From positions 1 to 42,304 of the forward strand of contig DASRZD010000208.1 of NCBI GenBank assembly GCA_035686805.1: a DNA stretch of 42,304 nucleotides, in the 5' to 3' direction. The first letter of the stretch is position 1. Every line of letters starts with the position of its first letter. Under the pieces are notes generated by a model that searched no databases, was not told where the DNA came from, and was given only the letters and a program-made list of their open reading frames with translations. The stretch is from Armatimonadota bacterium (GTDB taxonomy: Bacteria; Armatimonadota; UBA5829; DTJY01). This document shows positions 3,991 to 25,429 of this stretch, in pieces. A program made the translations under genes and the position numbers.

Positions 3991-4019
3991 TTGGGAAATG
4001 ATGAAAACCATGCTATAAT
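3991..4019 (+). promoter_or_regulatory. Putative sigma70 promoter of the mntA-hepT island (-35 TTGGGA, 17 nt, extended -10 TGcTATAAT)
   Basis: ttggga aatgatgaaaaccatgc tataat. A GGAGGA RBS lies 6 nt before the ATG at 4045. Confidence 0.5.
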
Positions 4020-4044
4020 GCAAGCAAGCACTGGAGGAAAGGCG

Positions 4045-4326: not shown

Positions 4327-4774
4327 GACTCGTGAAAGAGCGGAACTTGAGCTTACGCTTCTACGTCGACTGCTTGACACACATCGCTCTTTGCTGGAGA
4401 AGGTCCGGCACTCGGCTCCCAACGATATCGAGTTGAGCGCACTGGCAGCGATACTTCACTCCTTCTATACCGGCATCGAAAGCATCTTCAAGCGCATCGC
4501 CCTGGAGATAGATGATTCGTTCCCATCAGGTGAGTTTTCGCACTCCAACCTGCTTCGCCAAATGACTCAGTCTGCAGACCGCCGACCTGCCGTTATCTCG
4601 GAGGAACTCCGCCGCCGACTGCGCGACTACCTGGACTTCCGCCATGTCTTCCGCCACGCGTATACATTCGAACTGAAATGGCGGAAGATGTCAGACCTGG
4701 TACTCCACTGCGAGGAAACGCTCGATAGCCTTGAATTGGAACTGGGACAGTTTTTCTCACAAGGAAGCTCATAG
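4316..4774 (+). CDS. hepT: HEPN-domain RNase toxin, HepT-like
   Basis: Carries the Rx4HxY motif (DFRHVFRHAY). All-helical, ~150 aa. GTG start overlaps the mntA stop. MNT-then-HEPN is the canonical gene order. Confidence 0.72.
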   Translation: MWPETRERAELELTLLRRLLDTHRSLLEKVRHSAPNDIELSALAAILHSFYTGIESIFKRIALEIDDSFPSGEFSHSNLLRQMTQSADRRPAVISEELRRRLRDYLDFRHVFRHAYTFELKWRKMSDLVLHCEETLDSLELELGQFFSQGSS

Positions 4775-4782
4775 GTGACTTC

Positions 4783-5352
4783 ATGGCACAGATCACCAAG
4801 AGCACTCTGAAGATCATCCTGATTGCCTTCCTTGTGTCGTGGGCGGTCAATTGTTTCATCGTTTTCTTCCTGGTGCTCGGGAGTGGGATTCTGCCGATCC
4901 CCACGGATCTCTTGTTTCTATCAGTCATGCCCGTGAGTCTGATCTGGGTTCTTCTCTTTCTTTCAAAACGAGGCTGGTGGTTGGCTGTGGGTGGGTTAGC
5001 GGCAGCCTTCATATCCTTCTATCTGATAGCTAGGATCTTCATGCATTTCGTTGACACAGGGTACGGTCATGCAAAGGCTAGAGGTGCTAGTATCGCACAG
5101 AAGGTTAGCATCTATCATAAGCAACATGACCGCTGGCCAGAAGACCTTACGGGAGTCGATCTCCCTCCTCTCGATCCAAAGAGAATATCGCCTTACATCT
5201 GTGAGGGCCTATTCCATGATCATGAGGAGAAGGTCGGGGGCTTCTTCGTGTTCTATGAGTTGTCCGAGGGCAAGCCCGTCCTCAAAGTGAGCAGAAGAGA
5301 CATGTCTGCCACGTGGAACTGGGATACGATGAGCTGGCAGAACCAGCGCTGA
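4783..5352 (+). CDS. Hypothetical membrane protein (3-4 N-terminal TM helices plus a ~100-aa soluble C-terminal domain)
   Basis: 189-aa ORF starting 8 nt after the hepT stop, with a GGTGA SD-like motif. Hydrophobic stretches are IILIAFLVSWAVNCFIVFFLVLG, LLFLSVMPVSLIWVLLFL and WWLAVGGLAAAFISFYLIARIF. I recognise no family. Confidence 0.6.
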   Translation: MAQITKSTLKIILIAFLVSWAVNCFIVFFLVLGSGILPIPTDLLFLSVMPVSLIWVLLFLSKRGWWLAVGGLAAAFISFYLIARIFMHFVDTGYGHAKARGASIAQKVSIYHKQHDRWPEDLTGVDLPPLDPKRISPYICEGLFHDHEEKVGGFFVFYELSEGKPVLKVSRRDMSATWNWDTMSWQNQR

Positions 5353-5379
5353 TCCTCTTTCCGTCTGCCCATCAGCCTG

Positions 5380-5391
5380 CCTCTGTGTCTC
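5380..5391. repeat. Right copy of the 12-bp inverted repeat (CCTCTGTGTCTC)
   Basis: Perfect reverse complement of 3965-3976. It lies in the convergent gap between the island membrane gene and the uvrB stop. Confidence 0.7.
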
Positions 5392-5405
5392 TTTCGTGAG
5401 AATTC

Positions 5406-7394
5406 CTACTTGCGTGTAGGGAGGAGCTTTCGGAGGCGTTGGATTTCGTCTCGGAGCTCGGCGGCGTGCTCGAAATTCAACTCTTTCGCTGCGCGCTTCA
5501 TGTCGCGCTCGAGGTCGGCCAGGACGACGAGTATCTGGTCAAGGGGGGTATCCTCGGCGATGGCGGGGCGGACGTTGTAGTAGGCCCTGCTCTCGGCGAC
5601 TTTCTTGGCCTCGATGACATCCCTGACCGCCTTCACCACCGACTCAGGCGTGATGCCGTGCTGCTCGTTGAACTCCTGCTGAATCCCCCGCCTTCGGTTG
5701 GTCTCGGCAATCGCCCGGTGCATCGAGCCGGTGACATCCTGGGCGTACATGATGACCTTCCCCCGCAGGTGGCGCGCCGCCCGGCCGGTGGTCTGGATGA
5801 GCGACGTCTCCGAGCGCAGGAAGCCCTCCTTATCGGCATCCAGGATCGCGTCCAGCGAGACCTCCGGCAGGTCGAGCCCCTCGCGGAGGAGGTTGATGCC
5901 CACGATCACGTCATACACCCCCAGCCTCAGGTCGCGGAGGATCTCGTTCCTGTCGAGCGTGTGGACCTCGGAGTGGAGGTACTGCACCTTGATGCCCATG
6001 TCGAGCAGGTACTCGGTGAGGTCCTCGGCCATCTTCTTGGTGAGCGTCGTGACCAGGATTCGCTCGCCCTGGTCGGTGCGCAGTTTGATCTCCTCGATCA
6101 GGTCGTCAATCTGCCCCTCGGGTGGGCGAATCTCGACCTCCGGGTCAATGAGTCCCGTCGGGCGGATGATCTGCTCGACCATCTGCGCGCTGTTCGCCTG
6201 CTCATAAGGGCCGGGGGTCGCGGAGACGAAGACCACCTGGTTGATGCGGTCAAGGAACTCCTCGAACCTGAGCGGGCGGTTGTCCAGCGCCGACGGCAGG
6301 CGGAAGCCGAAGTCCACGAGCGTATTCTTCCGTGACATGTCACCGGCGAACATCGCGTGGAGCTGAGGGATTGTCTGGTGAGACTCGTCAATAAATAGGA
6401 GGAAGTCGTCCGGGAAGTAGTCGAGGAGGCAGAACGGCGGCGTCCCGGCTGGACGGCCATCGAGGATACGCGAGTAGTTCTCGATCCCCGAGCAATAGCC
6501 GATCTCCTTCATCATCTCCATGTCGTACTTCGTGCGCTGCTCGATGCGCTGAGCCTCAAGCAGCCGATTCTGGCGCTTGTAGTACTCGATCCGCTCCTCA
6601 AGCTCGTGCTCGATCTCGACGAGCGCCCGCTCCATGTTGTCCGCCGAGGTGACGAAGTGAGTGCCCGGGAAGATGGTGACCCGATCCTTGCGCTCCTGGA
6701 TCTCGCCCGTGAGCGGGTCAACGATGGTTATCCGCTCGACCTCATCGCCGAAGAACTCGACTCTGATCACGATCTCCTCGTCCGCCGGCTGGACCTCCAG
6801 CACATCGCCCCGCACGCGGAATGTCGCCCGCTGGAGGGCCATGTCGTTGCGGCTGAATTGCATCCCGATCAGGTGATGGAGGATCTCTTCGCGCTCGTAG
6901 GTCTTGCCAACGTCCAGGGTGAGCATGGTCTTCAGGTATTCGGCCGGCGAGCCCAAACCGTAGATGCACGAAACGCTCGCGACCACCACGACGTCCCGGC
7001 GCTCCAGGACGGCCTGAGTCGCGGAGTGGCGGAGGCGGTCAATCTCATCGTTGATGGACGAGTCCTTCTCGATGAAGGTGTCGGTCTGCGGGATATACGC
7101 TTCGGGCTGGTAGTAGTCGTAATAGCTGACGAAGTACTCGACCGCATTCTCGGGGAAGAACTCGCGGAACTCGCTGCATAGCTGGGCGGCCAGAGTCTTG
7201 TTGTGCGCGATCACCAGGGTCGGCCGCCGGACTTCCTTGATGACGTTCGCCATGGTGAAGGTCTTGCCCGACCCCGTGACCCCAACGAGCGTCTGGAACC
7301 GGTGGCCTCCGTTAAGCCCGTCCGACAATTGCTTTATTGCCTTGGGCTGATCACCCTTCGGCTCGAAATCTGCTACTAGCTTGTACTCACTCAT
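5406..7394 (-). CDS. uvrB: Excinuclease ABC subunit B (UvrB)
   Basis: 662 aa with helicase motif [11 protein letters not shown], a DESH box (FIDESHQT), and a C-terminal UVR domain ([19 protein letters not shown]). Confidence 0.98.
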
Positions 7395-9549: not shown

Positions 9550-10356
9550 TCACTTACCCCCGATGAGAAGCCCCAACAGGGCCGCCGCTATCATCGCCGG
9601 CAGCAAGCCCTTACCAGACTTGCGAGTCTCGGTCACGAACACGACCGGGTGGGCAGCAATATCCTCCTCTGCAGAATCAGCAACAACTACCTCCAGCGTG
9701 GCCTTGTTGATATCCGTCAGAAGCTTCTGTGCCAAATCGTAAGTCGCCGCAGTACCGATTGTCATCTCATTCGAATCGTCCATGGAAGCCTGTCCATTGG
9801 AAACGAACCTGTATAGCTCCTTGCCGCTGTTCACATCTATCAGCAGGAGCGTCGCCGACATGTCCACTTTCCCAGGGGCAGCCGGCTGCCCAGGACCGCT
9901 TTTCCCTGCCTCATACACATACTTATCTATGGAGCCTAGAATGGCCAACTGGCTTCCGGTGAACCTCGCCAACTTCAGCGCCCGAGCAGCACCCGCGGGA
10001 TCCGTATCGATCGCTGACACGATCTCCTTCTCGTCGCACTTCTGCTCCCTCACTGCGCGTTGAATGGAAGCTATTCGAGGCTGGAACTTGATTGCCGAGT
10101 AGGCTCTATTTGCGGCCACGCCCTCCGCAACGAGAGAGAACAAGTCCCTGGAAAACTGGGCTACGGCATCCGCTTGTGGACCAGGCTGCATGGCAGGCAC
10201 TGCCAATGGGAAAAGCATCAGTGACTTCTTTGTCGTCGGGAATTCCTGCCCGAACGCCGTCTGCCCCATAAGCAAAATGCAAAAACCAAGCAATAACCCG
10301 ACGCCAATTACCTTTGACCGCTTCAATATCCGACGCTCCTGTCTTGAGATGCTCAT
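9550..10356 (-). CDS. Secreted CsgG/LpoB/FlgO-superfamily-like protein with a C-terminal hydrophobic helix (operon gene F)
   Basis: Signal peptide ending ...LLMGQTAFGQE. Then SLMLFPLAV..., ...QLAILGSIDKYVYE..., and the C-terminus KGLLPAMIAAALLGLLIGGK. Paralogous to 10385-11212 and to the N-terminus of 23450-25429. The fold assignment is inferred from motif pattern only. Confidence 0.6.
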   Translation of the reverse strand: MSISRQERRILKRSKVIGVGLLLGFCILLMGQTAFGQEFPTTKKSLMLFPLAVPAMQPGPQADAVAQFSRDLFSLVAEGVAANRAYSAIKFQPRIASIQRAVREQKCDEKEIVSAIDTDPAGAARALKLARFTGSQLAILGSIDKYVYEAGKSGPGQPAAPGKVDMSATLLLIDVNSGKELYRFVSNGQASMDDSNEMTIGTAATYDLAQKLLTDINKATLEVVVADSAEEDIAAHPVVFVTETRKSGKGLLPAMIAAALLGLLIGGK

Positions 10357-10384: not shown

Positions 10385-11212
10385 TCAAAACGGCGGTGCT
10401 GGAGGAGTGTCATCAGTAACCGGCGCAGTTCCCGACCCGCCGCTTCCACCACCGGATCCGCTGAGTAGTAATCCAACCCCCAGCGAAAGCATCAATGCCG
10501 GAATCCACGATTTCTTGCTCGACTTTTCTGATTTCACTATGATTGTTCGGATCGGTTGAGGCGCTTGATACTCGTCTCCCGTTATCCCTTTGATCAGCTT
10601 TCGCCCTGCATCTTCTATGGCGGCCGTTCTGACCTTCGCCTCACCTACGCCCGTGTCACCTGCGGCCCGCACGGCATGTCCCTCGAACGGAATATCCCTG
10701 ATGGCCCTTCCCACTCTCCCATCGAGAAGCCTGACCTTCCCGGTGACATCGGCTGTTCCCGCTGTGCCGTTGAACACATACCTGTCCACAGAGCCTACGA
10801 TCAGGATGTTGGCAGACATCGCCTTCGCGAGCATTACCGCTCGGCCAATGGCCGCTTCGTCCGCGGCGAAGGGGCCCTGAGTGGCCGTCTTCTTGTCAGG
10901 CTGCAGCAAGACCAGCCGCTGAACGGCCGGAAGCCGCTCTGAAAACGCTACCGCGCGAAATCTCGGGCTGACGGAGAGCCCATCCCTTAGGAATAAGTTC
11001 AGCTCCGGCACAACCTTCGAATCACCCACCCCCGCCCCCGAATCCAGCGGGAACACGACTATGGACTGGGGTACCGATTCTACTCTCTGGGCTGCAAACG
11101 CCCCTGCAGAGAGATACGGCACTGCCACTATGCTGATCATCAGCCAGGCTAGATATCTATACGCTCGCAGCTTGACCATTGTTTGCATCTGAGTTGCCTC
11201 TTTCTTCAGCAC
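10385..11212 (-). CDS. Secreted CsgG/LpoB/FlgO-superfamily-like protein with a C-terminal hydrophobic helix and Gly/Pro tail (operon gene E)
   Basis: The GTG start overlaps the stop of the giant gene (TAGTG); an alternative ATG lies at 11188 after GAGG. Signal peptide ...LSAGAFAAQ. Then SIVVFPLDSG..., ...ANILIVGSVDRYVFN..., the helix WIPALMLSLGVGLLLSG, and the tail SGGGSGGSGTAPVTDDTPPAPPF. Confidence 0.6.
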   Translation of the reverse strand: MLKKEATQMQTMVKLRAYRYLAWLMISIVAVPYLSAGAFAAQRVESVPQSIVVFPLDSGAGVGDSKVVPELNLFLRDGLSVSPRFRAVAFSERLPAVQRLVLLQPDKKTATQGPFAADEAAIGRAVMLAKAMSANILIVGSVDRYVFNGTAGTADVTGKVRLLDGRVGRAIRDIPFEGHAVRAAGDTGVGEAKVRTAAIEDAGRKLIKGITGDEYQAPQPIRTIIVKSEKSSKKSWIPALMLSLGVGLLLSGSGGGSGGSGTAPVTDDTPPAPPF

Positions 11213-14200
11213 TACTTGTTCAGGTAGTCTATGCGGAATGATCTACTCGCGCCACCCGCATCTGCCCTGAACCGGTATGAGCCTCCAGGAATGATGACCA
11301 CTGACTTGTTCTCTGCAAGGTCCACGAGTACCAGCTTGACATTCGTGGGCACATCCTCGAGGTCGCTCCATTCCAACACGACCTCGCCTTCCCGGTCAGT
11401 ATTCACATTGAACTGCCAGGAATCGCCTACTGACAGGTTGCCTTTGAGATCCGAAGCGTACATCCCGTTCTTGCTATCGGTGAAGTATAGATCCACGAAT
11501 CCCTCGAAACAACCGGGACTCTCAATGCGCTCGTCACCTAACCGGCTTGCGCCGAAGTAATTGTACTGATCCTTGAGCTGACCATTCCGGGCAGTGATCC
11601 TGACCTCCCACTTGGCGGCGCTCATAGGGACGCTCTGTATCTCCTTTTCCATGCTGGATGCGGCGAGATCGCCGCTCACACTCCGGAAGCCGGGGATCAC
11701 CAATGTGCAGTTCACGTTGGCTTTCAGCCAGTATCCCTTCCACGGTATCAGCGTGTCGCTGCTGGATGCTCTTACGAGATTGTAGTTGCCTGTACCCTTG
11801 TCATACATCCAGCCGTAGTCCTTTATCCAGCCACTGGCGGCTGCTGTTGCCAGACTGACGTTGTTCGTCACCCCGCCCGAGGTATACTTGACCCTCAGAG
11901 CGCTCCAGTTCACTTCACGGGTGAATGGACAACCAATCTGATTCCAGCCCGCCCCCAGAGGAATGTTGTAGTCCTGGGTATCGTCCACCAGTATTCCTGC
12001 CGGCGCAATCACTTTCGATTCCAGCGTCTTTATCCAGTATCCCTGGCCGGTAGCGATTGCAGGGAAGTCATAGTCGGTCCTGATCCCCGGCAGCAGAGAA
12101 TACAGCTTGTAGTCTTTCTTCGCAGGCAGCCACTTCGCTAGCGCGAATGGCGGATTTGCCCCGAAGACGCCGTCCGGGAAGATGCTGATACCGGTTAGAG
12201 GTATCGAGATCATATCCAGACCGCTTACCGTGGTTGACGGACCTGTCACGGTAAATGACCTGACGAGTGAATTACTCACCTTGTACTGGCTGTTTCCGGG
12301 CCATGACGCCATCACCGACCACACGCCGGTAACCTTGGGTGTCCAGGCGTATTGATAGTAACCGTCTGCACCTGAATGCACAGTCACGTTGGTTGTTGCG
12401 CTGCCCCCTGGCTTCGTCACCGCGAGAGTCAAGTCAACCGACAGGGGCACATTGCCATAGCCCTTGATGTACCCGGCGGCAGTTACCTCCTGGCCTGCCA
12501 CGGAATTCGTCATGGCATTCAGCGTGATGTTTGCCGAACCTCGTTCCTCAACAACCGGAACGCCGTTCACCGTTGCAGTAGTCACCTCTGTCAGCCAGTC
12601 CGAAGCCTTGAAGAAGTAGGAGTGCGTCCCTGCGTCAAGCTCATTCGTGACGAACTCGTATTGAACTCCACTCGCATAGTCATCAGACGGAAGGACCTTC
12701 TCCATCTTATGCGCACTCGTCAGGCCCGCTCCATCAATGTATACTTCGACAAACTCAGGCTCATCATTGTCGGGGTCATCCTTGTAAGTGACCTGGTACG
12801 TGTAGGCATCCAGGTCATAACCCGAAGTGGGCGTCACACTGCCATTGAGCAACTTCGGCCATCCGGCGGTGTTGGCATGTACATCAGGCCCACTGATCTC
12901 CACGATCGGCGTGGGAGGAAGCGAGCTGGTAGAGTTCTTAACTGGATCCGGTGCATTCGGATCTGCCGCCTGGGCTTCCTCCATGTCCCGAACGTCCTGG
13001 TCGTACCAGGCGTATCCGTAGCCGTCGGTGGCCTCGAAGTAGAATTTATGCGGACCTACGGTCAGAGCATTCTTGCTCGTCGGATACGAGTACACGACAC
13101 CATTTGTGTAGTCTGCGCCCGGCACCGGAACGCTGATCTCCACAGGCGCGTTGCTGTCAATATACAGCTTGATCGAAGCCGGCAGATTGCCGTCCGGATC
13201 CGCGTATTTCACCTTATACTCGTAGACTCGGCCGGAATTCCCCGTGGTAGGTGTGACCAGACCACCGGTCAGTATCGGGGGCCTGCTGATGTAGGCCGTG
13301 AAGTTTGTTGACGACGGCAGTCTCACTATATACCATCCGTCCGAGGCCTCGAAGTAGAATTGATGAGCGCCCACCGTACTCAGGCTCATTGTGTAGGAAA
13401 ACTCGACGCCGAGCGAATACAACGGCGCTGGATCGCTGGTGGACATGGGATATGTCTTCCATACGCCCGGAGTCTCTTCGATAACGAGGTTTATGTAGCC
13501 GACTACCTGTCCGTTCGAGCTGGGTGGATCCCCATTCTCGTCCGTATAAGTCACCGCAAATCGGAACGGTGTGCCTGCCGTGCCCGTCTCAGGTGTTGAG
13601 CCGCCGCTGGTCAGGGTAGGCGCAACGTTCCCCGGCGGTGCGTCTTGTGTAACGACAGGGCCGGCCATGTCACCCGTTGACGGGTATCTGAGAGTATAGT
13701 CCTCAGTCTGACCTGGCATGATCTGTTCCGTCGTGACCGCTTTGAAGTGCGCCTCGTGCGTCCCCATACCGAGAGACGGCACTTTGGCCTTGTAGATCAC
13801 ACCACCTATGTCACTGTAGACCTGATCCGTCTCATCCAGCTTACTCATCAGCAGCTTGCCTATGGTGAACTCGCTGCCGGCTGGGACCATGCTGGCCAGG
13901 TCGGATGTCACCAGAGTAAGGGTGTCAGTCGTGTTCGACAGGATCTTGTATACAATGCGCTGGCTTGTCCCTGCCAGTGTGATCTGGACCGGCATACCGG
14001 CGAACTGGTCCGGTATCCAGTTCTCACTCGGGTTGCTGCTCTTAATGGTGTTGTCAGTGACGGCCAGTGCGGTTCCATTCCAATCGATTCCATCCGGATT
14101 ATCCACGTAGACTACCGGATAGCCCGTATTCGGCGCCTCATTATCATTGTCGCGATATGTGATCGAGTAGGTGATCGCCTGAGTGGTAGTCACGCTCCCC

Positions 14201-17200
14201 GCAGGATTTATCATCGGCGACGTGAACGTCGGCCGGTCGTTGACATACGGACCTTGTATCGGATCAATCGCTGTGGTACTCGGATCGGCCTCAAATACCG
14301 CCAAGGCCGAGCCGTCCGACGCCTCGAAGTAGAAGGAGTGATTCCCGCTGGTAAGATGCATGGAATGGGTATAAGTGACCCCTTCCCTGTACGTGTCGCT
14401 TCCCGTGGCATTCGTCATCGGAAGGGTCTTCCCATCAATGATCGCATTTACGAAGTTGGGTCGCTGGTCATCGAGGTCCTTGTAGGACACGGTGTAAACG
14501 AAGTTGGTCGAACTCTGACCCTTGGCAGGCGCCACCTGGCCGTCATACAACTGAGGCTCGTTATTGCCGCCAACCGCCAGCGGGCCCGTGGCCCCCGGCT
14601 CCGAGCCGAACCAATATTGTGAGGATATCGGCAGAGTAGGCGTGAAAGTCAGAGTGATCGATCCGGCAACGTTGTCAATCGTGTACAGAGTGCTGCTTAC
14701 CAGATTCGAGCCGTGGTAGATCAAAGGCGATGCGTAGTTTGTCTGGACCAGCAGATCCGCATTTGCCGGCACATCGGTGACAAGCGGATGATGCACGAAG
14801 TTGAAGATCTGCGGATTCGCCGTTGAAGTCAGCGTTTCGGCGCCAGGCAGGCTAATCTGCGGCTTCCATACCATGCCCGAGCTTGGGGACGTTGACACAT
14901 TGTAGTATGCCTCATCAACACCATCCGATGCCACAAAGCAGTGGTAATACTTCTTTGGCGTAGTGCTGTCGCCTGGCAGCCTGGTGGAGTAATAGAACTG
15001 AACACCCTTGTTATATACAGTGTCCTGATCATCCACTTGCTCTATCGTATGACCGCCGTCCCAAACGATGGGACCGCTCGGCGGGTTGTCCTGCCGGCCG
15101 ATGTATACCAGTTTGTAGTACGGCGGCTGGTTGTTCGCGTCGGTATACCAGACGTTGTAATTCCAGATGGTAGCCTCATTTGACGTGCCATCAGCCGATA
15201 TGACACTTCCGCTGGTGAGTCTGGGAGCGGTATTGTCGGTGATTTGGAAGCTGCCGGCCGGGCTGGTGCCGTTCGCCGGCGCATATACCGTTTCTCCGGC
15301 GATATTGTCATTGTTCTCGACCGGGCTACCCCAGTTATCGGTGAACGCGAATCTGTACTGCCTCTGGCCAACCTGCAGTCTCAGCCCAGGGGCGCTGGAC
15401 GTGTTCCATTCATAGATCACCCCATCCGAGTACAGCCGGGTAAGGTTATCGGCCGGGATACTGGGGTCATCCGGATTGGGCTTGGCTTTGTACATGCTCC
15501 CAGTGTAGGTATTACCAGCGTCATCGGTCTGAATGATGATATCCAGCCCCGGCACAGTCCCGGTGCCTGGGAAAGGCCGCTGGTTGTCGGCATCCTTATA
15601 GGTAATTCGGAACCGGAAGTTGGTGCCGGTTGGTCCGCTATTCGGGAAAACGCTCCATGAGTTGTTCACAAGCTCCGGCTTGGTGTTGATCCACGGGCCG
15701 TTGATAAGATCGTTGTCCACCGGAGTATTCTGATCGCCCAAATCAGGATTAGGCGACTTGTTGGGCAGGACAGTCTCATAGAAGACGCCGCCGTCGTACT
15801 CGGTGGCATCCATTCGCCTGGGATAGCGGCACACGTGGGCTTTCACAGTGGCCGTCCTGCCGTATCGCTCGTCCGTCCACTGCTGATCGGCCGCTTCAAA
15901 ATAGTAGCAGTGCGGCCCTTTCGTGAGCTGCGTGTATTGGCCTGGTTGCAGTAGAACCAAGCTCGGGAACGACAATCGGCATTCATAGGAGACGCCGGTC
16001 TTGTACACATCGTTTTGATACTCGTTACCGGTTACGCCCTGGCCTGGCGAGGGCTGCATGACGCTATATCCCCATGGCTGTCCGTCCTCGGCATTCCACC
16101 CGTTCTTGACATACAAGCGGACGTAACTGGGAGCGATACCCGCTGACTGCCAGTAATTCACCTTGAACGTAAACACGTCGTGATCTGTACCGCCCGCGCT
16201 CTCCGCCCAGAGCCTCATATCGGAATAATCCTGACCAGGTACCGACGGAATCACGGCTTTCTTGTACGGAGACAGGGTGCCGAGGAATCTCTCACCGCCT
16301 GCCAGGCCGCTGATCTCGAACAGGCCGGGGTTAACCACCGGGAACGTGAATGCCTGATAGTCGACGGTTACGCCATCCAACCACCGCGTGACGCTAGGTT
16401 CCGTACTTTCTCCGACCCATGAGTCATACGGATACCCGGATGCCCATGCGCCCGGCATATAGGTCTGTTTGTCTACGTAACTCCCCGGACGTACGGCGCC
16501 CGCATCGTAGAATCTGGCTGTGTTATCTATAACGCCCCATCCCCAGAGCAGTGGCCACGTCGGCTCAGATATTCCGGATGTCCCCTCAACATAACAAACG
16601 TATTTATGGCCATTCGTAACCGTGGGTACCACGAAATCACCGAGGTAATAATGCGTCGAAGCTGTCCAGGTAGTGGCGCTTGGCGGACTGTCGAACGAGA
16701 GGGCCCTCTTGTAGTTGATCCCATCGGCATAGTCGAACAGGAAATCATGCGGCGCAGGCGCCGTCGGGAGTGGAGGCGTCTCCTCCAGTTGCGGCCAGAC
16801 TGTATTCTTCATGTTGTCAATTGCCCACGCGGAGTAGTCGTCATCCGAACAGGCAAAGTAATACTCGTATCGTCCGGGCGGAAGTGCCTCATAATAATGG
16901 TTGGTTTCATACGTGCTCGCCCACGTAGTATTCCAATGATCGCTGCTCGTCTTGATCAGACCGCCGGTGGTCGGCCCAACCCTAAGGACATAGTCTATCG
17001 GTACAGTCGAGTCATGGTAGTTGCCAGTCTCGTCCTTCTCCTTGTACATGTGGTGACCATGGAAGTATTTCCAGTACTGCTGCTCCGGTACGTACATCTG
17101 CCCGTCCCAGACCAAGGTGGTTGGCAGATTTGCCCAGTCGAGATTGCGGAGGTATAACATCACTCCACTCTCCAGAGTCGTATAGTTCCAGGTGTCATTC

Positions 17201-18021
17201 CAATAGGTCATCCATGGCAGAGGCTGCTGGTTGAAGCCCACGCGGTTGTCGTAGGTTACCCGGAAGGTGTATGTGCTGGTGGTCGAACCTTCATCCGGGA
17301 ACTGTGTGGGATCCTCCGGCGAGGGCAATGTGCGATTCGTTACATCCAGTGGATCCACCCAATGGTAGAAGGGCCATCCATCCGGGAATGCCTTGAGGTA
17401 GTCTATTCCCCAGTACACGCCGCCATATGAATCGACCGTCGTGAAGTACGTGGACTCAAAGGTATCGTAGATCGTAGGGGCAGCGGCCGGGGTAGCCGGC
17501 ACAACCTTTGGCGTCACCGCTCCCGTATCGGGATCCGTCCATTCCATATACCACCAGTACTTCAAGTCGCCATTGGCGGATCCGTCGCCCTTTGCACGAA
17601 GACCCGGGACCCAGTGTACACGGTCATCCGGAAGAAAGCCGCCGGCCATGCCGGCATCCCCGTAGCCGGGGATGCCTTCCGCGGTCACGTTCCTCATGTC
17701 CAAGCCGCCGGTGACGTAGATGAAGAGCTCATATCCATTCTGGAAGTTGCCGTCTTTGTGGAAATGACTATCGCCAACAGGGAAGTATATCGTTGTGCCT
17801 GCTATATGAAGATCCAGCCTGCTGGGCCATTGCGGATCGTCGCCCTGATCTGCGTACCTCGCTGTGAACCGGAAAACCGAGTTCGCTGTACCGGACCCTG
17901 GGCTGAAGCCAGGGCTAGGGACGGTAAGAGTACCTACCGCCAAAGCCTGCCGCCCGGACAAGACGATCATGGCAGCCATGAGTCCCAAGATCGCTATGCA
18001 TAACCCTCTTGGTTTTTTCAT
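11212..18021 (-). CDS. Giant secreted repeat protein (~2270 aa): ~10 divergent Ig-like repeats + prealbumin-like domain + Trp-rich shared module + C-terminal beta domain (operon gene D)
   Basis: The ORF track runs to 18099. I prefer the ATG at 18021 (MKKPRGLCIAILGLMAAMIVLSGRQALA signal peptide, GAGGGGG RBS 9 nt upstream). The repeat signature recurs, for example TNFVYTVSYKDLDDQRP...GVTYTHSMHLTSGNHSFYFEASDG, TPFRFAVTYTDENGDPP...FYFEASDG, RVYEYKVKYADPDGNLP...HKFYFEATDG and AYTYQVTYKDDPDNDEP...HSYFFKASD. Confidence 0.85.
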   Translation of the reverse strand: MKKPRGLCIAILGLMAAMIVLSGRQALAVGTLTVPSPGFSPGSGTANSVFRFTARYADQGDDPQWPSRLDLHIAGTTIYFPVGDSHFHKDGNFQNGYELFIYVTGGLDMRNVTAEGIPGYGDAGMAGGFLPDDRVHWVPGLRAKGDGSANGDLKYWWYMEWTDPDTGAVTPKVVPATPAAAPTIYDTFESTYFTTVDSYGGVYWGIDYLKAFPDGWPFYHWVDPLDVTNRTLPSPEDPTQFPDEGSTTSTYTFRVTYDNRVGFNQQPLPWMTYWNDTWNYTTLESGVMLYLRNLDWANLPTTLVWDGQMYVPEQQYWKYFHGHHMYKEKDETGNYHDSTVPIDYVLRVGPTTGGLIKTSSDHWNTTWASTYETNHYYEALPPGRYEYYFACSDDDYSAWAIDNMKNTVWPQLEETPPLPTAPAPHDFLFDYADGINYKRALSFDSPPSATTWTASTHYYLGDFVVPTVTNGHKYVCYVEGTSGISEPTWPLLWGWGVIDNTARFYDAGAVRPGSYVDKQTYMPGAWASGYPYDSWVGESTEPSVTRWLDGVTVDYQAFTFPVVNPGLFEISGLAGGERFLGTLSPYKKAVIPSVPGQDYSDMRLWAESAGGTDHDVFTFKVNYWQSAGIAPSYVRLYVKNGWNAEDGQPWGYSVMQPSPGQGVTGNEYQNDVYKTGVSYECRLSFPSLVLLQPGQYTQLTKGPHCYYFEAADQQWTDERYGRTATVKAHVCRYPRRMDATEYDGGVFYETVLPNKSPNPDLGDQNTPVDNDLINGPWINTKPELVNNSWSVFPNSGPTGTNFRFRITYKDADNQRPFPGTGTVPGLDIIIQTDDAGNTYTGSMYKAKPNPDDPSIPADNLTRLYSDGVIYEWNTSSAPGLRLQVGQRQYRFAFTDNWGSPVENNDNIAGETVYAPANGTSPAGSFQITDNTAPRLTSGSVISADGTSNEATIWNYNVWYTDANNQPPYYKLVYIGRQDNPPSGPIVWDGGHTIEQVDDQDTVYNKGVQFYYSTRLPGDSTTPKKYYHCFVASDGVDEAYYNVSTSPSSGMVWKPQISLPGAETLTSTANPQIFNFVHHPLVTDVPANADLLVQTNYASPLIYHGSNLVSSTLYTIDNVAGSITLTFTPTLPISSQYWFGSEPGATGPLAVGGNNEPQLYDGQVAPAKGQSSTNFVYTVSYKDLDDQRPNFVNAIIDGKTLPMTNATGSDTYREGVTYTHSMHLTSGNHSFYFEASDGSALAVFEADPSTTAIDPIQGPYVNDRPTFTSPMINPAGSVTTTQAITYSITYRDNDNEAPNTGYPVVYVDNPDGIDWNGTALAVTDNTIKSSNPSENWIPDQFAGMPVQITLAGTSQRIVYKILSNTTDTLTLVTSDLASMVPAGSEFTIGKLLMSKLDETDQVYSDIGGVIYKAKVPSLGMGTHEAHFKAVTTEQIMPGQTEDYTLRYPSTGDMAGPVVTQDAPPGNVAPTLTSGGSTPETGTAGTPFRFAVTYTDENGDPPSSNGQVVGYINLVIEETPGVWKTYPMSTSDPAPLYSLGVEFSYTMSLSTVGAHQFYFEASDGWYIVRLPSSTNFTAYISRPPILTGGLVTPTTGNSGRVYEYKVKYADPDGNLPASIKLYIDSNAPVEISVPVPGADYTNGVVYSYPTSKNALTVGPHKFYFEATDGYGYAWYDQDVRDMEEAQAADPNAPDPVKNSTSSLPPTPIVEISGPDVHANTAGWPKLLNGSVTPTSGYDLDAYTYQVTYKDDPDNDEPEFVEVYIDGAGLTSAHKMEKVLPSDDYASGVQYEFVTNELDAGTHSYFFKASDWLTEVTTATVNGVPVVEERGSANITLNAMTNSVAGQEVTAAGYIKGYGNVPLSVDLTLAVTKPGGSATTNVTVHSGADGYYQYAWTPKVTGVWSVMASWPGNSQYKVSNSLVRSFTVTGPSTTVSGLDMISIPLTGISIFPDGVFGANPPFALAKWLPAKKDYKLYSLLPGIRTDYDFPAIATGQGYWIKTLESKVIAPAGILVDDTQDYNIPLGAGWNQIGCPFTREVNWSALRVKYTSGGVTNNVSLATAAASGWIKDYGWMYDKGTGNYNLVRASSSDTLIPWKGYWLKANVNCTLVIPGFRSVSGDLAASSMEKEIQSVPMSAAKWEVRITARNGQLKDQYNYFGASRLGDERIESPGCFEGFVDLYFTDSKNGMYASDLKGNLSVGDSWQFNVNTDREGEVVLEWSDLEDVPTNVKLVLVDLAENKSVVIIPGGSYRFRADAGGASRSFRIDYLNK

Positions 18022-18067
18022 TCGGATATACCCCCTCGTTGACCACATTTTCTTAATATCAAGGCTT

Positions 18068-20209
18068 CTACGGTCCCGAAGGAGGACCGCCTCCACCATC
18101 GATCGGAACCCCGCCCAATGCGGCGCCGATCTGAGAAGAAGGACTTATCGTCATTGTGACCTCAGGCTGCAGAGCCCGGATCCAATAGCCTTGCCATGGT
18201 TTAAGCTGCACTGACCGGTCTGATGACCAGCGGTATTGCCGGCGTGCTGGGTCCCACCAGAAGACCGTACTGCTGATGAGGCCGCGACTCAGCGCCTCAT
18301 CGTAGTCCATAGCTCCATATTGCCTGTTATAGAATGTAACCTCCCCCAGGGTAACCGTGTACAGGAAGGGATTCCCCACCAGATTCCATCCGGTGGAGAG
18401 GTCTACGTTATATCCCTGCGTGCCTGCCCAGGTAACCGGGGTATAGGTCCCTGAGACCATTGACGTCCTTTGCGCCGTACTTAGCTTCAGCCAATACGCC
18501 TTGCCCGGCAACACCTCAGAGACAGCCTTGTACTGCCGAGCATGAGGATCATACTCCCAGAACACACCGCCGGCGAGGCCCAGCAAAGACCCGGGGTCTG
18601 GGTTGGTCACATAGAATGGGACGGATATCATCTGCCATCCCGCGGATAGCGGCTGCCACTCTGTAGCCGCGATATTCACCTTTCGCTTGACACTAGTACC
18701 TCCCACGGGCGCTGCCGAATACAACACCGAGTACTCCATGATGCCTGTAGGATAGTTCACCGGCTTCACTTTCCACGAGACGCTCGATTCCGAATCAGCG
18801 TTGATCCTGGAGAACGCCTTCGTATACTTGCCGCCTTCCGATTCATCGAGGGTGAGGCCCGAAGGCAGAGTGAGGGTGAAGCTCGGATTCAGCAAATCGA
18901 CGCTCTTTGCCGTGTTGTATATGTAGGCGGTGATATCGAAGGGGTTGGGATCCAGAGCCCCCGTGCCGGAATCCGAATAGTAGTTCAAAACCCGCGGACC
19001 CTGAACGGCCGCCACGTACTGAGGACCGGACTCCCCCTCCTTTAATCCAAGATTCGGCTTTGTGAAATCCGACGAGGCGCACGCCAAACCGATGTAGTGG
19101 ATAAACGTGATACTCTGGCCGGCAGGCAGCCGCCGAGGTCTCCAGACTGTGCCGTAACTAAGGTCGTCTATGTATTGATGCAACGTCGGCGTCGGAAAGA
19201 TCCAGTGAACATACGGATCAGACTCTCTGCCGGTGAAGTCATACCAGTAGGTGAACATGTCCCCCGCCATAGGGAGCCAGTCATGTATCCCCAGTCTGTC
19301 TGGAGGGGTGGCCCCCTGTTCCTTCATAGTTATACGGAATCCCACTGAGGGGTCAGCCTGCGAATTGTAGAATTCCAAGAGAGAAGGAATGCGCCTCTTG
19401 GAGGTCGAATCATCGTCGGCCATTACCGTTTGATCCACGATCAACGGATAACCAGGTGCACTTACGACGTTGCGAAGATCCCTCGTACCCTCGTCCTCGG
19501 GGTTCGTGACCACGTCGGCGTAGTCCCGCAAGCCTACGTAGTGGTCATAGCCGTCCTCATTCGTAAACTTCCATTTAAACCGAACGGTGTCTCTCAGCAA
19601 CCGGATCTCCAGATCACACCGAATCCCAACGGGGGCCACCGGGCTCACCGAGCCTCCGGTTATAAGGGAAACCCCACCCGTAGGAGTGGGATACCATGTC
19701 GCCAGGATCGTGTTCGGGAGGGTACTGGGAGTGTACGGCCAAATGTACCAATCGCCGTCCAGAATGTCACCCAGCATTGCGGACATCCCGCCTCTCGCAA
19801 AGGTTGCCCATACTCGCTCTATGCTATCAGCATCAGTGGTATAGGAGTCAACCGTCAACTGGAATGCGCCCCACTTGTCTCCGGGGCCCGGAGGCGGATA
19901 GAGTTCAGAGAAATTGAAGTACTGGCCGTCATCCTGGAGTGTGGTCGGATCTCCTCCCGTGCACCAGATATGGAAACGCCCACCCGCGGGCTGACCGCCC
20001 TGGAGAGCATGCACAGGCGAGGGTATACCCCACTTGCCGTACAAGCCGAGTCCTACGCCCAGATAGCCGTTCTGCAGGCTGATGCAGAAAGGAAACCAGT
20101 CATCAGTATTGTCATCACTCTGCGCAGCGGCAGGCGGCCCAAAGAATAGACTGGCCACGATCAGTGACGCCACTACAAGCTGGAATGATCTCAAAATGAA
20201 CTTAGACAC
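18068..20209 (-). CDS. Secreted 713-aa protein with an unknown N-terminal domain, a CARDB/NEW3-like Ig domain and the Trp-rich shared module (operon gene C)
   Basis: GTG start 4 nt after GAAGGAGG. Signal peptide ...LFFGPPAAAQS. C-terminal module GWQMISVPF...GKAYWLKL...GWNLVGNPF...LKPWQGYWIRAL, followed by the tail GGGGPPSGP. Confidence 0.8.
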   Translation of the reverse strand: MSKFILRSFQLVVASLIVASLFFGPPAAAQSDDNTDDWFPFCISLQNGYLGVGLGLYGKWGIPSPVHALQGGQPAGGRFHIWCTGGDPTTLQDDGQYFNFSELYPPPGPGDKWGAFQLTVDSYTTDADSIERVWATFARGGMSAMLGDILDGDWYIWPYTPSTLPNTILATWYPTPTGGVSLITGGSVSPVAPVGIRCDLEIRLLRDTVRFKWKFTNEDGYDHYVGLRDYADVVTNPEDEGTRDLRNVVSAPGYPLIVDQTVMADDDSTSKRRIPSLLEFYNSQADPSVGFRITMKEQGATPPDRLGIHDWLPMAGDMFTYWYDFTGRESDPYVHWIFPTPTLHQYIDDLSYGTVWRPRRLPAGQSITFIHYIGLACASSDFTKPNLGLKEGESGPQYVAAVQGPRVLNYYSDSGTGALDPNPFDITAYIYNTAKSVDLLNPSFTLTLPSGLTLDESEGGKYTKAFSRINADSESSVSWKVKPVNYPTGIMEYSVLYSAAPVGGTSVKRKVNIAATEWQPLSAGWQMISVPFYVTNPDPGSLLGLAGGVFWEYDPHARQYKAVSEVLPGKAYWLKLSTAQRTSMVSGTYTPVTWAGTQGYNVDLSTGWNLVGNPFLYTVTLGEVTFYNRQYGAMDYDEALSRGLISSTVFWWDPARRQYRWSSDRSVQLKPWQGYWIRALQPEVTMTISPSSQIGAALGGVPIDGGGGPPSGP

Positions 20210-20234
20210 TTTGCCTCCTTCGGCGCATTACGGC

Positions 20235-23200
20235 TCACTGCACCACACCGGTGTACGGATTGGGCGCCACGATAAGCTTTACGTCTGCCGGCCGCACCGG
20301 GACCGGCTGAACCCTGAAGTAGTCCCAAGAACAATCGAGCATGCCGTCGTTAATCAGCCAGAATGATCCCGGCTCTTGGAAGCTATCATCCTCTAACTCC
20401 CAATCGGCTACATCGCCGCGACCAGGGAATGTGCCGACCTTCACCTTGATGTGAGACTTGTTAGCAGGCATTGGACTAGTCGTAGCTCCAACGGCTGTTA
20501 TAGTTATGTAGTAGGCTGATCCGCTTGCAAGACTATTCATGACCTGTTTGCTTTGAATGACCAGCCCATTGTCGCTTCGGCGCAATGATATCGTCGAGGG
20601 CGAGTCCCCCGCTCTGAACGCCAAAGCATATCCTATTCCGGTAGCACTCGCCCGGAATCTGAGCTCGGCGTTAGCCGGACCGCCTGGCACGGTTGGCGCG
20701 GAATTGTCTAGAACTAGTCTTGCGCTGACTGTAAAATCGCCGTAAATCGGGAAATCCTTGTTCGTCACATATGTATACGATGGCGAATTGGGGATCCCGC
20801 CAAGCCTCAACATGTCGCCTGATTCGAGTACCGAGCCGTTTGTATTCCCCACATACCACGTCGGCTCAGGATCATCCTGGTCTATAACGCCATCGCTGAA
20901 CTCGTCGGCCCAGGCTGCAAAAGTGGATGGAGTCAGATCCGGCGTTTTCACCTTCACCCTGATCCATTCGCCTTCCCAGGGCATCATCACCGCCGTGCTC
21001 ACATCCTTCCACGTGTATCTTCGATAGAAACTGTCATAGCGGAAAACAGAGTTGGAGATCCATCCCCTGGCAGCAGCTTCCGTGGCGCCAATTCTTTCTC
21101 CGGCATATTCCACGATCACGTTGGACCAGGTGACGGGGAACGCGAACGGATCGCCGACTATGTTCCAACCGGAGTAGAGGCTGATGATGTATGGAGCTTG
21201 TTCTACCGAGTCTCCATATCCGTCAGGAACGGTGACGTTAGAGCCCGTAGGCAGATAGAGCCAGTACCCAAGCCCTGCGGGTGGCGTGCCCTTGGAGCCG
21301 CCAAGCGGCTGCACCAGCCAATTCGCGTAGGCGCTTGTGGGAGTGAAAGTGGCCTCATCATCTGACCGGCTGCCATCCAGACTGTATAGCGCATACTCCC
21401 CACTGGAACTATTCGTATAATGCCACCGAGCCAGCACACCGCTATTCCCCATGATCTCTTCCGGTTTCTTCGGTTCCACGAAATTGAAGGGGACTGCGAA
21501 GAGCTTCCAACCGGATCCCAGCGTCGCTGGATTGAGCTTGAAACTGGTGATATCCGAAGGAGGAGGCGGAGGTACATCCAGTGTCATATCCGTCCCAGCG
21601 GTCACGTAGATTGTGTGCGTCCCATTCACCGCCAATCCCGGCTTCACGGTATATTCGAACAGAAGATACCTCTTGCCCGAAGCCTCGTCGAGGGTATACA
21701 GGTAGTCCTGCCAGTTTGCGATCTCGGGACTCGGGCCTCCCATGGTAGGCTGATTGTCCGGAACGCCGTCTCCGGTAGTATCCACGCCGTCTATCCAGAC
21801 GCGAATGGTGTCCAGCTTGGCATGTCTGAGGTTGATCCGGAACCTCGGCCTGGTCGTCCTGACCACCGCACCCTTCGCAGGCGAAACAATCTCCACATCC
21901 ACCGATGCTTTTGCCAGGGCGCCATAGACATTCAATAAACCCCAGCCATATGTATCGTTCGGATGGCCTATTCCCCTCGGCGTCGCAGTCTCATAGAGCA
22001 ACGGCTTGACATCCTCGGGCGGAACGCCATGGGATATCAACAGGGCTGCTGCTGCGGCAACGCAAGGCGATGCCATAGAAGTGCCTGGCATGTAAGTGAA
22101 TATGTTGCCATATTTGTCAGGCCACGTCGGCATTGGATCAGGTTGGGGCCAGTCAATTGCATTCGGCGAGTAGGATGTCGGTGTGGGGGGCGTATCGGTC
22201 TCCGTGTCTACGGTTGCAAGATACTTGTACCAGGCAGTGCTCAGAATGTACCAACCGGGGGCGGCAATGTCCAACGCCGGGCCGTGCTGAGAGAAGTCGG
22301 TTATGGTGTCGTCATACTGAGTCGCGCCTACGCAGATGCTCGCGGCATAGGCCGACGGATAACAGGGAGCATAAGCCCCATATTCCCACTCATTGCCGGC
22401 CGCGCACACTACCACAATTCCCTGGCTTACCGCCTGCTTTATGGCGGATTCCTCTTCCTCAACGCGCATGAAATAATGCCCCATACTCATGTTTATTACA
22501 TTGACCTTTATGGGCTTGCCATCCAACGTAGTGCCGCCGCGCCACGCCATTGCGAGATATATAGCATCTATCTCGTCCGCCACATTGCCTGCCCCGGTGT
22601 CTTTAAAGACCTTGAACGGAAGGATCTGCACATTATCCCACGCCAGGCCGGCAACTCCTATCCAGTTGTTCGCCTGGGCCGCGATGATGCCGGCAACGTG
22701 AGTCCCATGCTCCGGAACCCTATTGATTGGCGTTATAGGTTTCTCGCTCGGTGCCGGTCCGGGATTTTCACCATCTTCTCCCGCATCCGCCACGTCATAT
22801 CCATGCAGCACCCGACCCTGAAGATCGGGATGGATGATTCGGGTCAGTCTTCCTTCCTCGTTGTAGAACGTGCGATCCCTTACTCCGGTATCTATGACGG
22901 CGACAACTATCCCTTCAGCGCCTTTCTCCACATCCCAGGCCTCGGGGGCGAAGATATGCATGTTCGGTCCCCAAAGCTGCCATTGCCCAGTCAGGAATAA
23001 CTCGCCTGTGGGATCAGGGTTTATCATCCCATATTGATGGTAGAACTCATCATTCGGTTCCACACTGGGATAGATGTAGTAGTTGCGGCTCAGAGATTTG
23101 ACAACAGGATACGAAGCCAGAATCGAACCCTCGTTATTGAGGAACGTATCAACAGGCGTACCGGTTCCAGGCAGCTCAAGGACCCATGTGTGGCTATACT

Positions 23201-23449: not shown

Positions 23450-25429
23450 CTATAGAGAAGGCGGTGACGGCGGTGTGTTGCCTCCGTTGTCGCCTCCATC
23501 ACTGTCGGGAGGCGGTTCTGGCATGTCAGGCAGAGTCATGAATGAGTAGTACTGGTTCATATCACAGTACATGTATCTGGTGTTCTTCGGCCCATCCACC
23601 TGAGGCGAGGGGCCGGCCGGATAGGGTCCCGGCGCGTCCGTCCTATTTCTTGCGCCTACACGCCAGTAGAGCGTACCCCCCGCAAGGACATTCGCCAATT
23701 CGGCAACCGTTGTTCCCGAATCCGCGTCCCTCAACGTGTAGGTTTTCGTAAACAACTGCAGATCAGCGGGAGTCGGCTGGTAGACCACGTCTACCCATGT
23801 CTCATCTCGTTTGAAGTCCGGGGTCGGGGAGACTTCGATCACATATTGATCGGCCCCTGCGCAACCTCTCCAACTGAAGGTGACATTGCTAAGATCCACA
23901 TACTCAGACGCCACAATGCCCCCCGGAGCATCACATTCCGGACGTCTCAGGTATGTCGCGCGTCCCGCATACGAGCCCTGAGTCTCCCAGTACGTGACAA
24001 CGGCCGCACCTTCGTTATCGGTGCCATGCCTCCTGTATACGCATGTGACCCAGTATTGATGAGGAGTTCCCACACTCAGTCCGGTCTGCACATAATGCCT
24101 GCTATCCAGATCAGTATGATCGGAGCTTGGGACAACGTAGTCGAAACCCGGATCTCGGGCGTACGTATCATCTATGGTGGAGTGGTCATAACTGCCAATC
24201 GCCCCGCTGATTCCAACCGCGGTTACCGGATCATTATTGATTACCGGGCCGCAGTTCACGTTGTCTCCCGAACCATATTGGGACGTGATGCTACCGAGAT
24301 TATCACGCCACACGTGGAATTCAATAATGTCCGTTGCACGCACACCTTTCGGCGTATTCCAAGCAACCAATATGCCACCGTTGCTCCAGGGCGAAACCAC
24401 GTCAGGTGTCTTGCCGGCCATTGCGACGGTGCCGGGCACACCTTCCGCTTGCTCTCCGCCACCCTTGAAGAGCGTCGCCAGGCCCACCAGTGCAATGAGC
24501 CCCCAGAGCAGCTTCCCGCCTTTTGCGATCCTATTCTTGCTTTCCAGAGGTTTGGCCTGTGCCTTCCCTGTCTCCAGAGGCAGTTCATAGACAGCCCTGA
24601 CTCGGTCCTCGGGTTTCAGACCTCGGGTTGTGCTGACCACCGTTCCGTGCGAATCGTTATCGCCGAGCTTGGTAATCTTTATGCGCCCCACTACTTCGTC
24701 TTCGCCCGTCTCACTTCGCCGGAGAGCAATCATCTCCATGCCGGACTTGATCCCCTCCTGTGCGCCCTTATTCAGCAGCACTTCGGTGGGGCTGAAAGTC
24801 CCGATGATCGTAGCCTCCGGGATAATGTACTGCACCATGCTCTCCACGGCCTGACGGGCTGCATCATTGATTGCCTCGATGATGAGATCAGTGTCCTTAT
24901 CGGCGCTGTATCCGATCCGCGGATTACTCATTCCTATGGCGATCGCTCCATTTGACCACTCGCCGGATGCCACGTGAAGCGTCCGAACGACCAGGCGAAC
25001 CTCGGCTTTCTTCTTGCCGCTGTCCACTTTGATCGAGGTAATCTCCCCGTGAACGACACCGTCAACGCCGCCAAGCTCCTGGCCAAGACGAACCATCATT
25101 GACGGCGTCATGGCGACTTTCAGCGTCCGATCTTCCTTTGACTTATACCCCAGCGCCTCCATCGCAGCCTGCAGGCCGTCGGCCGGAGTGACGCCAAACT
25201 TCCCGGATCGGAGAAGCTCCACTACTACGGCGTCAGTCGCCATGGTGCCAAACATCTCATTCGGCATCTTACTGTTGTTCCGGAAGTCCACTACGGCGAC
25301 CTCAATGGTGCCGGCCTGGGCTAACGCCGGAAGCGGAGTGAGGACTGTGCCGATTATGGGACTCATGAATGAAACTATGCAGAACACGCTTATCGGCCAA
25401 CGTGCCGCACATCTTCTGAACGATCGCAC
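23450..25429 (-). CDS. Secreted multidomain protein: CsgG/LpoB-like domain + small beta-barrel domain + hydrophobic helix + two FN3-like domains + Pro/Gly tail (operon gene A)
   Basis: GTG start 9 nt after AGGAGG. Signal peptide ...LPALAQA. Then IEVAVVDFRNNS...TDAVVVELLRSGKFGV...VDGVVHGEITSIKVD, the helix LLWGLIALVGLATLF (aa ~307-321), FN3-like ILVAWNTP...EFHVWRD and VTFSWRG...YVIEVSP...LYWRVGARN, and the tail PEPPPDSDGGDNGGNTPPSPPSL. Confidence 0.8.
   Translation of the reverse strand: MRSFRRCAARWPISVFCIVSFMSPIIGTVLTPLPALAQAGTIEVAVVDFRNNSKMPNEMFGTMATDAVVVELLRSGKFGVTPADGLQAAMEALGYKSKEDRTLKVAMTPSMMVRLGQELGGVDGVVHGEITSIKVDSGKKKAEVRLVVRTLHVASGEWSNGAIAIGMSNPRIGYSADKDTDLIIEAINDAARQAVESMVQYIIPEATIIGTFSPTEVLLNKGAQEGIKSGMEMIALRRSETGEDEVVGRIKITKLGDNDSHGTVVSTTRGLKPEDRVRAVYELPLETGKAQAKPLESKNRIAKGGKLLWGLIALVGLATLFKGGGEQAEGVPGTVAMAGKTPDVVSPWSNGGILVAWNTPKGVRATDIIEFHVWRDNLGSITSQYGSGDNVNCGPVINNDPVTAVGISGAIGSYDHSTIDDTYARDPGFDYVVPSSDHTDLDSRHYVQTGLSVGTPHQYWVTCVYRRHGTDNEGAAVVTYWETQGSYAGRATYLRRPECDAPGGIVASEYVDLSNVTFSWRGCAGADQYVIEVSPTPDFKRDETWVDVVYQPTPADLQLFTKTYTLRDADSGTTVAELANVLAGGTLYWRVGARNRTDAPGPYPAGPSPQVDGPKNTRYMYCDMNQYYSFMTLPDMPEPPPDSDGGDNGGNTPPSPPSL

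Follow-up and report, generated by a model that had tools for sequence, protein, structure and literature searches.

A tryptophan-rich domain of approximately 165 amino acids (aa), here called the module, is present once in each of three consecutive secreted proteins (B, C and D) encoded in a 42,304-nucleotide (nt) stretch of an Armatimonadota genome (assembly GCA_035686805.1, contig DASRZD010000208.1, positions 1 to 42,304), which is referred to below as the window. The module is a real, old, widespread and unannotated domain that is independent of its cargo and biased toward the C-terminus. It represents a new family within a known kind, namely the cargo-independent accessory domains of secreted bacterial proteins, and it may act as a surface docking or binding domain, a reading that is favored here with somewhat less than even confidence. 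The three copies, as delimited by hidden Markov model (HMM) envelopes, are the following:

20928..21518, minus strand: module copy in B, aa 637-833 of 1063, with a ~30-aa insertion in its first unit and 230 unannotated aa after it
18140..18646, minus strand: module copy in C, aa 522-690 of 713, the most compact copy, followed by a 23-aa Gly/Pro-rich tail
11689..12228, minus strand: module copy in D, aa 1958-2137 of 2295, with 158 aa after it

An earlier note on this DNA had described an ordered motif string common to the three proteins, and all of the quoted motifs were found in the same order, with the D segment of that note beginning five residues late relative to the HMM envelope. The similarity, whose significance had been left to alignment statistics, proved to be significant, since BLASTP comparison of the segments gave E 1e-17 for B and C (37% identity over 112 aa), E 4e-13 for B and D, and E 7e-9 for C and D. 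When an HMM built from the three copies was run against the six-frame translation of the window, only these copies were recovered (E 1e-74 to 1e-85), and the next match had E 0.18. The description of the module as Trp-rich also held, with 10 W in the 169 aa of the C copy. Low nucleotide identity, taken in the same note to mean that the module is old and under selection and did not arise by duplication in recent times, was borne out as well: codon-threaded DNA identity among the copies was 40-47%, third positions were saturated (30-36% identical), and blastn among the three copies gave no significant match. Each copy was 41-81% identical to its positional orthologue in other Armatimonadota, compared with 23-37% to its paralogues in the window, which indicates that the three copies split before these Armatimonadota lineages did.

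The module is composed of two homologous units of ~80 aa, and comparison of first halves with second halves by hhalign gave a probability of 95% (E 3e-8). In the C copy, the two units are:

18419..18646, minus strand: first unit, ~75 aa, GWQMISVPF ... PGKAYWLKL, placed by hhalign
18140..18412, minus strand: second unit, ~90 aa, GWNLVGNPF ... KPWQGYWIRAL, the better conserved half

The first half follows the pattern GW-x-M-I-S-x-P ... W-x-Y-D ... Y ... P-G-x-x-Y-W-h-K and the second half G-W-N-x-V-G-x-P-F ... F-x-Y-D ... Y ... P-W-x-G-Y-W-I-R, with invariant G-W-N, G, P and G-Y columns of the second unit in an alignment of 42 diverse module sequences. The module arose by ancient tandem duplication of a ~80-aa unit (GW-x-h-h-x-x-P ... 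W-x-Y-D ... Y ... P-G/W-x-G-Y-W), and in some distant proteins, such as P0066, several first units occur without the second. Invariant or nearly invariant residues in the alignment were Pro, Gly, Trp, Tyr, one Asn and one Ala, and therefore carry no catalytic signature; no conserved set of acidic, His, Ser or Cys residues suggesting catalysis was detected among the 42 sequences.

An AlphaFold2 model of the C copy based on the same alignment reached a mean predicted local distance difference test score (pLDDT) of 92.3 and a predicted template-modelling score (pTM) of 0.87, and contains ~14 short beta strands, mostly of 3-7 residues and the longest of 9, together with two short helices. An earlier model, made from the B copy with a 7-sequence alignment, was poor (pLDDT 59) and was discarded. 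Searches of the C-copy model with Foldseek gave nothing below E 0.14 in PDB (best template-modelling score 0.28) and nothing below E 0.07 in the viral structure library BFVD.

The distribution of the module was examined by an exhaustive HMMER search over 1.84 billion representative proteins (clusters at 50% identity), which yielded 15,489 matching proteins at E<=1e-3, 3,818 at E<=1e-10 and 195 at E<=1e-30. A word-indexed homologue search returned only 4-5 matches even with the 42-sequence profile and was unusable for counts. Among the 151 best matches of the exhaustive search, the following architectures were observed:

71 of 151: one copy, the protein ending 0-12 residues after the module
37 of 151: two copies, the second terminal
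15 of 151: module followed by a ~160-aa tail, D-like
13 of 151: module followed by a 180-300-aa tail
15 of 151: other architectures

The protein ends with the module in 108 of these 151 matches, and carriers stop at one profile position, typically just after C-T-L-x-h-P and often with a few further prolines; such a common end point is not a truncation artefact. The module is likewise the last domain of C, and it is not the last in B, in D or in the orthologues of the Armatimonas type described below. The earlier placement near the C-terminus was precise for C (23 aa after the module) and less so for D (158 aa) and B (230 aa). In 37 of the 151 the module is doubled, which suggests avidity, and P0004, a protein of 261 aa consisting of the module preceded only by a signal peptide and a short linker, suggests that the module would function alone.

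The association of the module with unrelated cargo, also proposed before, was evident in 63 full-length carriers that were scanned for known domains. Their proteases belong to the sedolisin, S8 and M6 types, and other cargo includes a transglutaminase core, Ig-like, fn3, TIG and cadherin-like repeats, CHB_HEX_C_1 repeats, a beta-helix and RCC1 repeats. One GH16 was the only glycoside hydrolase among them, and two carriers possess a carbohydrate-binding module (CBM) of their own, CBM6 or CBM35. No Pfam family was common to more than six of the 63, implying that the module region is simply not covered by Pfam.

In agreement with the earlier view that the module could not be assigned to a named family, neither Pfam nor NCBIfam gave a family for it in the full proteins, in the excised modules (E<=10) or in the 42 module sequences taken individually, and Foldseek gave no match in PDB. 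A generic carbohydrate-binding or Ig family, which had been named as the finding that would speak against a specific role, was not found for the module by Pfam or Foldseek. Functionally, the module resembles the type A C-terminal domain (CTD) of the type IX secretion system (T9SS), a cargo-independent beta domain that ends diverse secreted proteases and adhesins and is enriched in certain phyla, as well as the SLH domains and Listeria GW modules treated below, each of these being a single kind of domain found on unrelated surface proteins. However, the T9SS CTD is a single Ig-like beta sandwich of ~70-100 aa, whereas the module is about twice as long (~165 aa), has two repeat units and can be internal or doubled. 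The T9SS CTD families PF18962 and TIGR04183 matched neither B, C and D, nor the excised modules (E<=10), nor the 42 sequences, and the PDB entries without a Foldseek match to the module include solved T9SS CTD structures. In addition, at three loci of a genome scan, L021 (Balneola), L022 and L024 (Ignavibacteriae), the module or one of its units lies upstream of a PF18962 sorting domain (L024 also matches TIGR04183), which shows that the module and the T9SS CTD are separate entities. No T9SS machinery (SprA/Sov, PorV, PorU, PorK-N) was matched among the window proteins scanned, which represent 42 kb of the genome.

Other accessory domains were compared in the same manner. S-layer homology (SLH) domains are likewise modular envelope-anchoring domains, common to S-layer proteins and exoenzymes of deep-branching bacteria, but their units are ~55 aa long and helical, in contrast to the predicted all-beta module, and SLH (PF00395) gave no Pfam match to it. 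The GW modules of Listeria InlB and Ami are SH3-like units that bind lipoteichoic acid and retain unrelated proteins non-covalently at the surface; like the module, they are C-terminal tandem units of ~80 aa with a Gly-Trp dipeptide. Unlike Listeria, the present host would be a diderm, judging from gene G (below) as a probable outer-membrane protein; the module had no Pfam match to the GW module (PF13457) or SH3b, and no SH3-like fold appeared among the Foldseek results. No Pfam CBM family or solved CBM fold matched the module, and the CBM6 and CBM35 matches in the two carriers mentioned above are not the module, since the excised modules match no CBM family. The pre-peptidase C-terminal (PPC) domain and P-domains of secreted subtilases resemble the module of B in that these beta domains, too, come after an S8 catalytic domain, but the module is also found on non-protease cargo, and no HMM of either kind, PF04151 of PPC included, matched it. 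An outer-membrane beta-barrel of the autotransporter or OmpX-like kind was considered and rejected, as the predicted strands are short (longest 9), the module is often internal or doubled, and carriers end in Pro, Lys or similar rather than Phe. Nothing pertinent to a sorting domain of Armatimonadota came up in the literature searched.

The only PDB sequence touched by the module profile was RemZ (Fjoh_0803), a T9SS type A substrate of Flavobacterium johnsoniae, with a marginal match (E 0.014) at aa 693-871 that repeats the Y-x-Y-D ... P-G-x-G-Y and G-N-P-Y motifs. In the RemZ structure the CTD alone is resolved, and the profile-matched region is not in the resolved part (PMC10994853). This marginal match is a lead only and gives no information on fold or function.

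The three carriers in the window belong to a cluster of seven closely packed genes (A-G; intergenic gaps -32 to +80 nt) between uvrB and coaE, in which a site scan found promoter- or terminator-like sites no more often than expected by chance:

23450-25429, minus strand: gene A, signal peptide, LpoB/CsgG-like domain, hydrophobic segment at ~aa 305-325, then ~330 more residues
20235-23426, minus strand: gene B, secreted subtilase of 1063 aa (Pfam and NCBIfam)
18068-20209, minus strand: gene C, secreted protein of 713 aa, N-terminal 500 aa unannotated, module C-terminal
11212-18099, minus strand: gene D, giant secreted protein of 2295 aa with divergent ~100-aa repeats, the module and the D-tail domain
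10385-11212, minus strand: gene E, signal peptide, alpha/beta domain, C-terminal hydrophobic segment; paralogue of F
9550-10356, minus strand: gene F, paralogue of E, signal peptide, C-terminal hydrophobic segment
7445-9469, minus strand: gene G, signal peptide, Big_1/Invasin_D3 at aa 30-119 (Pfam, with PDB invasin matches), ~550-aa C-terminal region

The N-termini of B, C and D, as read from their sequences, are all signal-peptide-like. B comprises, in order, a pro-domain-like N-terminal stretch, Peptidase_S8 (aa 171-496), a beta region, the module and the 230-aa tail. E and F are similar to each other (BLASTP E 5e-14), and E weakly matches the NCBIfam 'lipo-invert C-terminal anchoring domain' (E 0.047). 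The LpoB matches of A in Pfam and NCBIfam are weak, its orthologue in L005 passes the Pfam LpoB cut-off, and BLASTP of A against E gave no significant similarity; from weak HMM matches and reading of the sequences, A, E and F may have an LpoB-like nature in common. The ~550-aa C-terminal region of G, for which no family match was obtained, ends in ...GSGGF, with a terminal Phe, and is probably a large outer-membrane barrel; the domain order of G is the reverse of that in the intimin/invasin inverse autotransporters.

Conservation of the cluster was assessed by a genome-locus scan whose patterns were taken from C orthologues only, so that its taxonomic picture is biased toward Armatimonadota. 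It gave 23 loci, of which ~16 are titled Armatimonadota or Armatimonas and three have uninformative titles (among them L004, with the full A-G set), the remainder being from Acetothermia (one), Balneola (one), Bacteroidota (two) and Ignavibacteriae (one). The closest genome matches are metagenome-assembled genomes (MAGs) of Armatimonadota, and L002-L004 keep the entire rpsA-coaE-A-B-C-D-E-F-G order. The loci L005-L018, of the Armatimonas type, have a shorter set consisting of a module protein, A, a B-like S8 protease, a C-like protein, a small E/F-like gene and G. The three module proteins together with A and G are conserved in 16 Armatimonadota loci, where G follows the module proteins, and A is kept upstream of B across the phylum. 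All three module proteins of the Armatimonas type consist of cargo, the module, a ~135-aa domain like that in the tail of D and a terminal FlgD_ig-like domain, so that ~270 aa follow the module. The cluster A-G looks like a phylum-wide envelope or surface assembly.

On this basis, the module would be a predicted all-beta, extracellular and non-catalytic accessory domain of ~165 aa with two short helices, attached, usually at the far C-terminus, to many Sec-exported proteins of Armatimonadota and occurring in other phyla as well. It would bind a common cell-surface partner, either an envelope glycan or an outer-membrane platform, and through such docking, enzymes and adhesin-like proteins that are secreted would remain attached to the cell or come together on it. 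One copy in each of B, C and D, together with their conserved location beside the membrane-anchored, LpoB-like A, E and F and the probable outer-membrane protein G, suggests a single surface complex, in which the module would be the common docking element. The C-terminal bias and the cargo-independence of its distribution fit an anchoring or association domain. Consequently, of the sorting, anchoring or self-association role suggested earlier, the anchoring or association part is consistent with the distribution (108 of 151 terminal), while a strict terminal tag like the T9SS CTD is contradicted by the internal position in B and D, by doubled copies, by P0004, which is almost nothing but module, and by proteins of Ignavibacteriae, Balneola and an unclassified MAG in which a genuine T9SS CTD comes after the module.

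Several observations weigh against the docking reading. The extracellular location, binding function and ligand of the module, as well as its partner and link to G, are predictions, and Foldseek found no fold match to a known binding domain in PDB or BFVD. The conservation of its residues might have purely structural reasons. Many carrier genes lie at a distance from A and G homologues: none was present within 10 kb at L001, L015, L019, L020-L024 and L025, and the idea that the module is confined to loci with A or G homologues therefore fails. Moreover, the Ignavibacteriae and Balneola relatives already have a T9SS CTD for surface attachment, so that a second anchor is not obviously needed there. 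The contigs with the lone module genes of L001 (14410-15183) and L025 (17439-18290) also encode N_methyl and SBP_bac_10 (DUF1559) pseudopilin-like proteins. Genes of this type are frequent in Armatimonadota, Planctomycetota and Verrucomicrobiota, a hint that many module matches may come from these phyla.

Binding to a target outside the cell has also been considered, in which case the module would be a CBM-like substrate-targeting domain that recognizes an environmental polymer and brings the enzyme to its substrate. It is aromatic-rich, built of tandem units and C-terminal, as are many CBMs; its carriers include proteases, the GH16 protein and a beta-helix protein, and weak Foldseek similarities to jelly-roll or cupin-like sandwiches were seen, none of them significant. 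We regard this possibility as unlikely, given that the 63 carriers include a single glycoside hydrolase, that two of them already have CBM6 or CBM35, that many are purely Ig-like, fn3 or TIG repeats without an enzyme, and that neither a CBM HMM match nor a significant PDB fold match was obtained.

Alternatively, the module might be a passive stalk, spacer or folding helper that holds the cargo off a membrane-proximal end domain, comparable to the Ig-like domain before T9SS CTDs or to the P-domain of subtilases. This would suit the Armatimonas-type and Fibrobacterota-Chlorobiota-Bacteroidota (FCB) group proteins, where the module lies between cargo and a terminal FlgD_ig or Por_Secre_tail domain, and the invariant residues are typical of cores and turns. 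In most relatives, however, nothing follows the module, leaving nothing from which the cargo could be spaced; a stand-alone module protein exists, and the motif string is strongly conserved across phyla and among long-diverged paralogues. A passive role of this sort appears rather doubtful.

A dedicated secretion or sorting domain, recognized by its own translocon or attachment machinery in the outer membrane (G, with A, E and F, might provide it), would be functionally similar to the T9SS CTD or to the C-terminal barrel of type XI secretion system (T11SS) cargo. The extreme C-terminal position in 108 of the 151 best matches, the cargo-agnostic spread, the prominence of the family in one phylum among the genome matches and the constant location of the three module genes of Armatimonadota beside a gene for a large outer-membrane protein all accord with this explanation. 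Yet the module is followed by 230 aa in B, by 158 aa in D and by ~270 aa ending in a FlgD_ig-like domain in Armatimonas-type orthologues, it is doubled within single proteins and occurs without cargo in P0004, it precedes genuine T9SS sorting domains in L021, L022 and L024, and around lone carrier genes neither A nor G occurs within 10 kb. Sorting in this sense is thus quite improbable. Still more so is its extended form, in which Armatimonadota would have an outer-membrane system for secretion or attachment, so far undescribed and made up of G and the LpoB-like membrane proteins A, E and F. The module, with a new fold, would recognize cargo for this system, taking the part played elsewhere by the T9SS CTD or the T11SS cargo barrel, and every protein of the genome that ends in the module would be a client.

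If this interpretation is correct, a very large family, with more than 15,000 clusters at 50% identity, has so far been unnamed, and no solved structure resembles the fold that was confidently predicted for it. With the family defined, the secreted proteome of Armatimonadota, as well as some proteins of the FCB group, could be annotated better, and there would be a sequence handle for predicting the surface proteins of these poorly studied diderms, for which the conserved seven-gene envelope cluster A-G is a candidate surface assembly. Should the module be a sorting or attachment signal, it would point to a new route of protein display in a deep-branching phylum. Uncharacterised extracellular domains are common, and the mechanism put forward here is an inferred one.

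The window itself is a housekeeping stretch of a bacterial chromosome with ~57% G+C and nearly all genes on the minus strand, among them, as identified by translation and Pfam, uvrA, uvrB, coaE, rpsA, polA and sppA. In the closest relatives, the cluster is also located between coaE/rpsA and uvrB. Gly/Pro-rich tails end A, C and E. The annotated start of the D open reading frame (ORF) overlaps the end of C, and translation probably begins instead at the Met of nt 18021 (MKKPRG...), after which a clear signal peptide follows. Between aa ~60 and ~1900, D contains at least six divergent repeats of ~100 aa (at aa 76, 828, 1200, 1512, 1626 and 1766) with the signature P-x-x-G-x-x-x-T-x-F-x-F-x-V-x-Y-x-D-x-D, which were detected neither by Pfam nor by self-BLAST.

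The sequence after the module in D forms a feature of its own:

11212..11688, minus strand: D tail, aa 2138-2295, a ~25-aa linker and a ~133-aa unannotated domain

By BLASTP, the D-tail domain directly follows the module in 43 of the best module matches and is also found between the copies in double-module proteins. A Bacteroidetes MAG protein at L020 aligns contiguously across the module and the D tail. The tail has no Pfam match, and its ~133-aa part is a second recurrent domain that lacks annotation. The possibility that it is a degenerate sorting domain was rejected, as hhalign against the FlgD_ig-like end domains gave a probability of 1%. The tail of B (20235-20927, minus strand; aa 834-1063, 230 aa) also had no Pfam match and was found among the module matches only in the B orthologue P0100 (58% identity).

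Finally, five viral-contig loci retrieved by a scan for the GWN-x-x-G-x-P-[FY] motif match little beyond the motif. The putative viral contig IMGVR_UViG_3300037400_003220 (L031) has a 1368-aa ORF at 1332-5435 on the plus strand with several weak partial profile matches (whole-protein E 3e-7, no single convincing domain), and this ORF may be a distant relative of the repeat unit.

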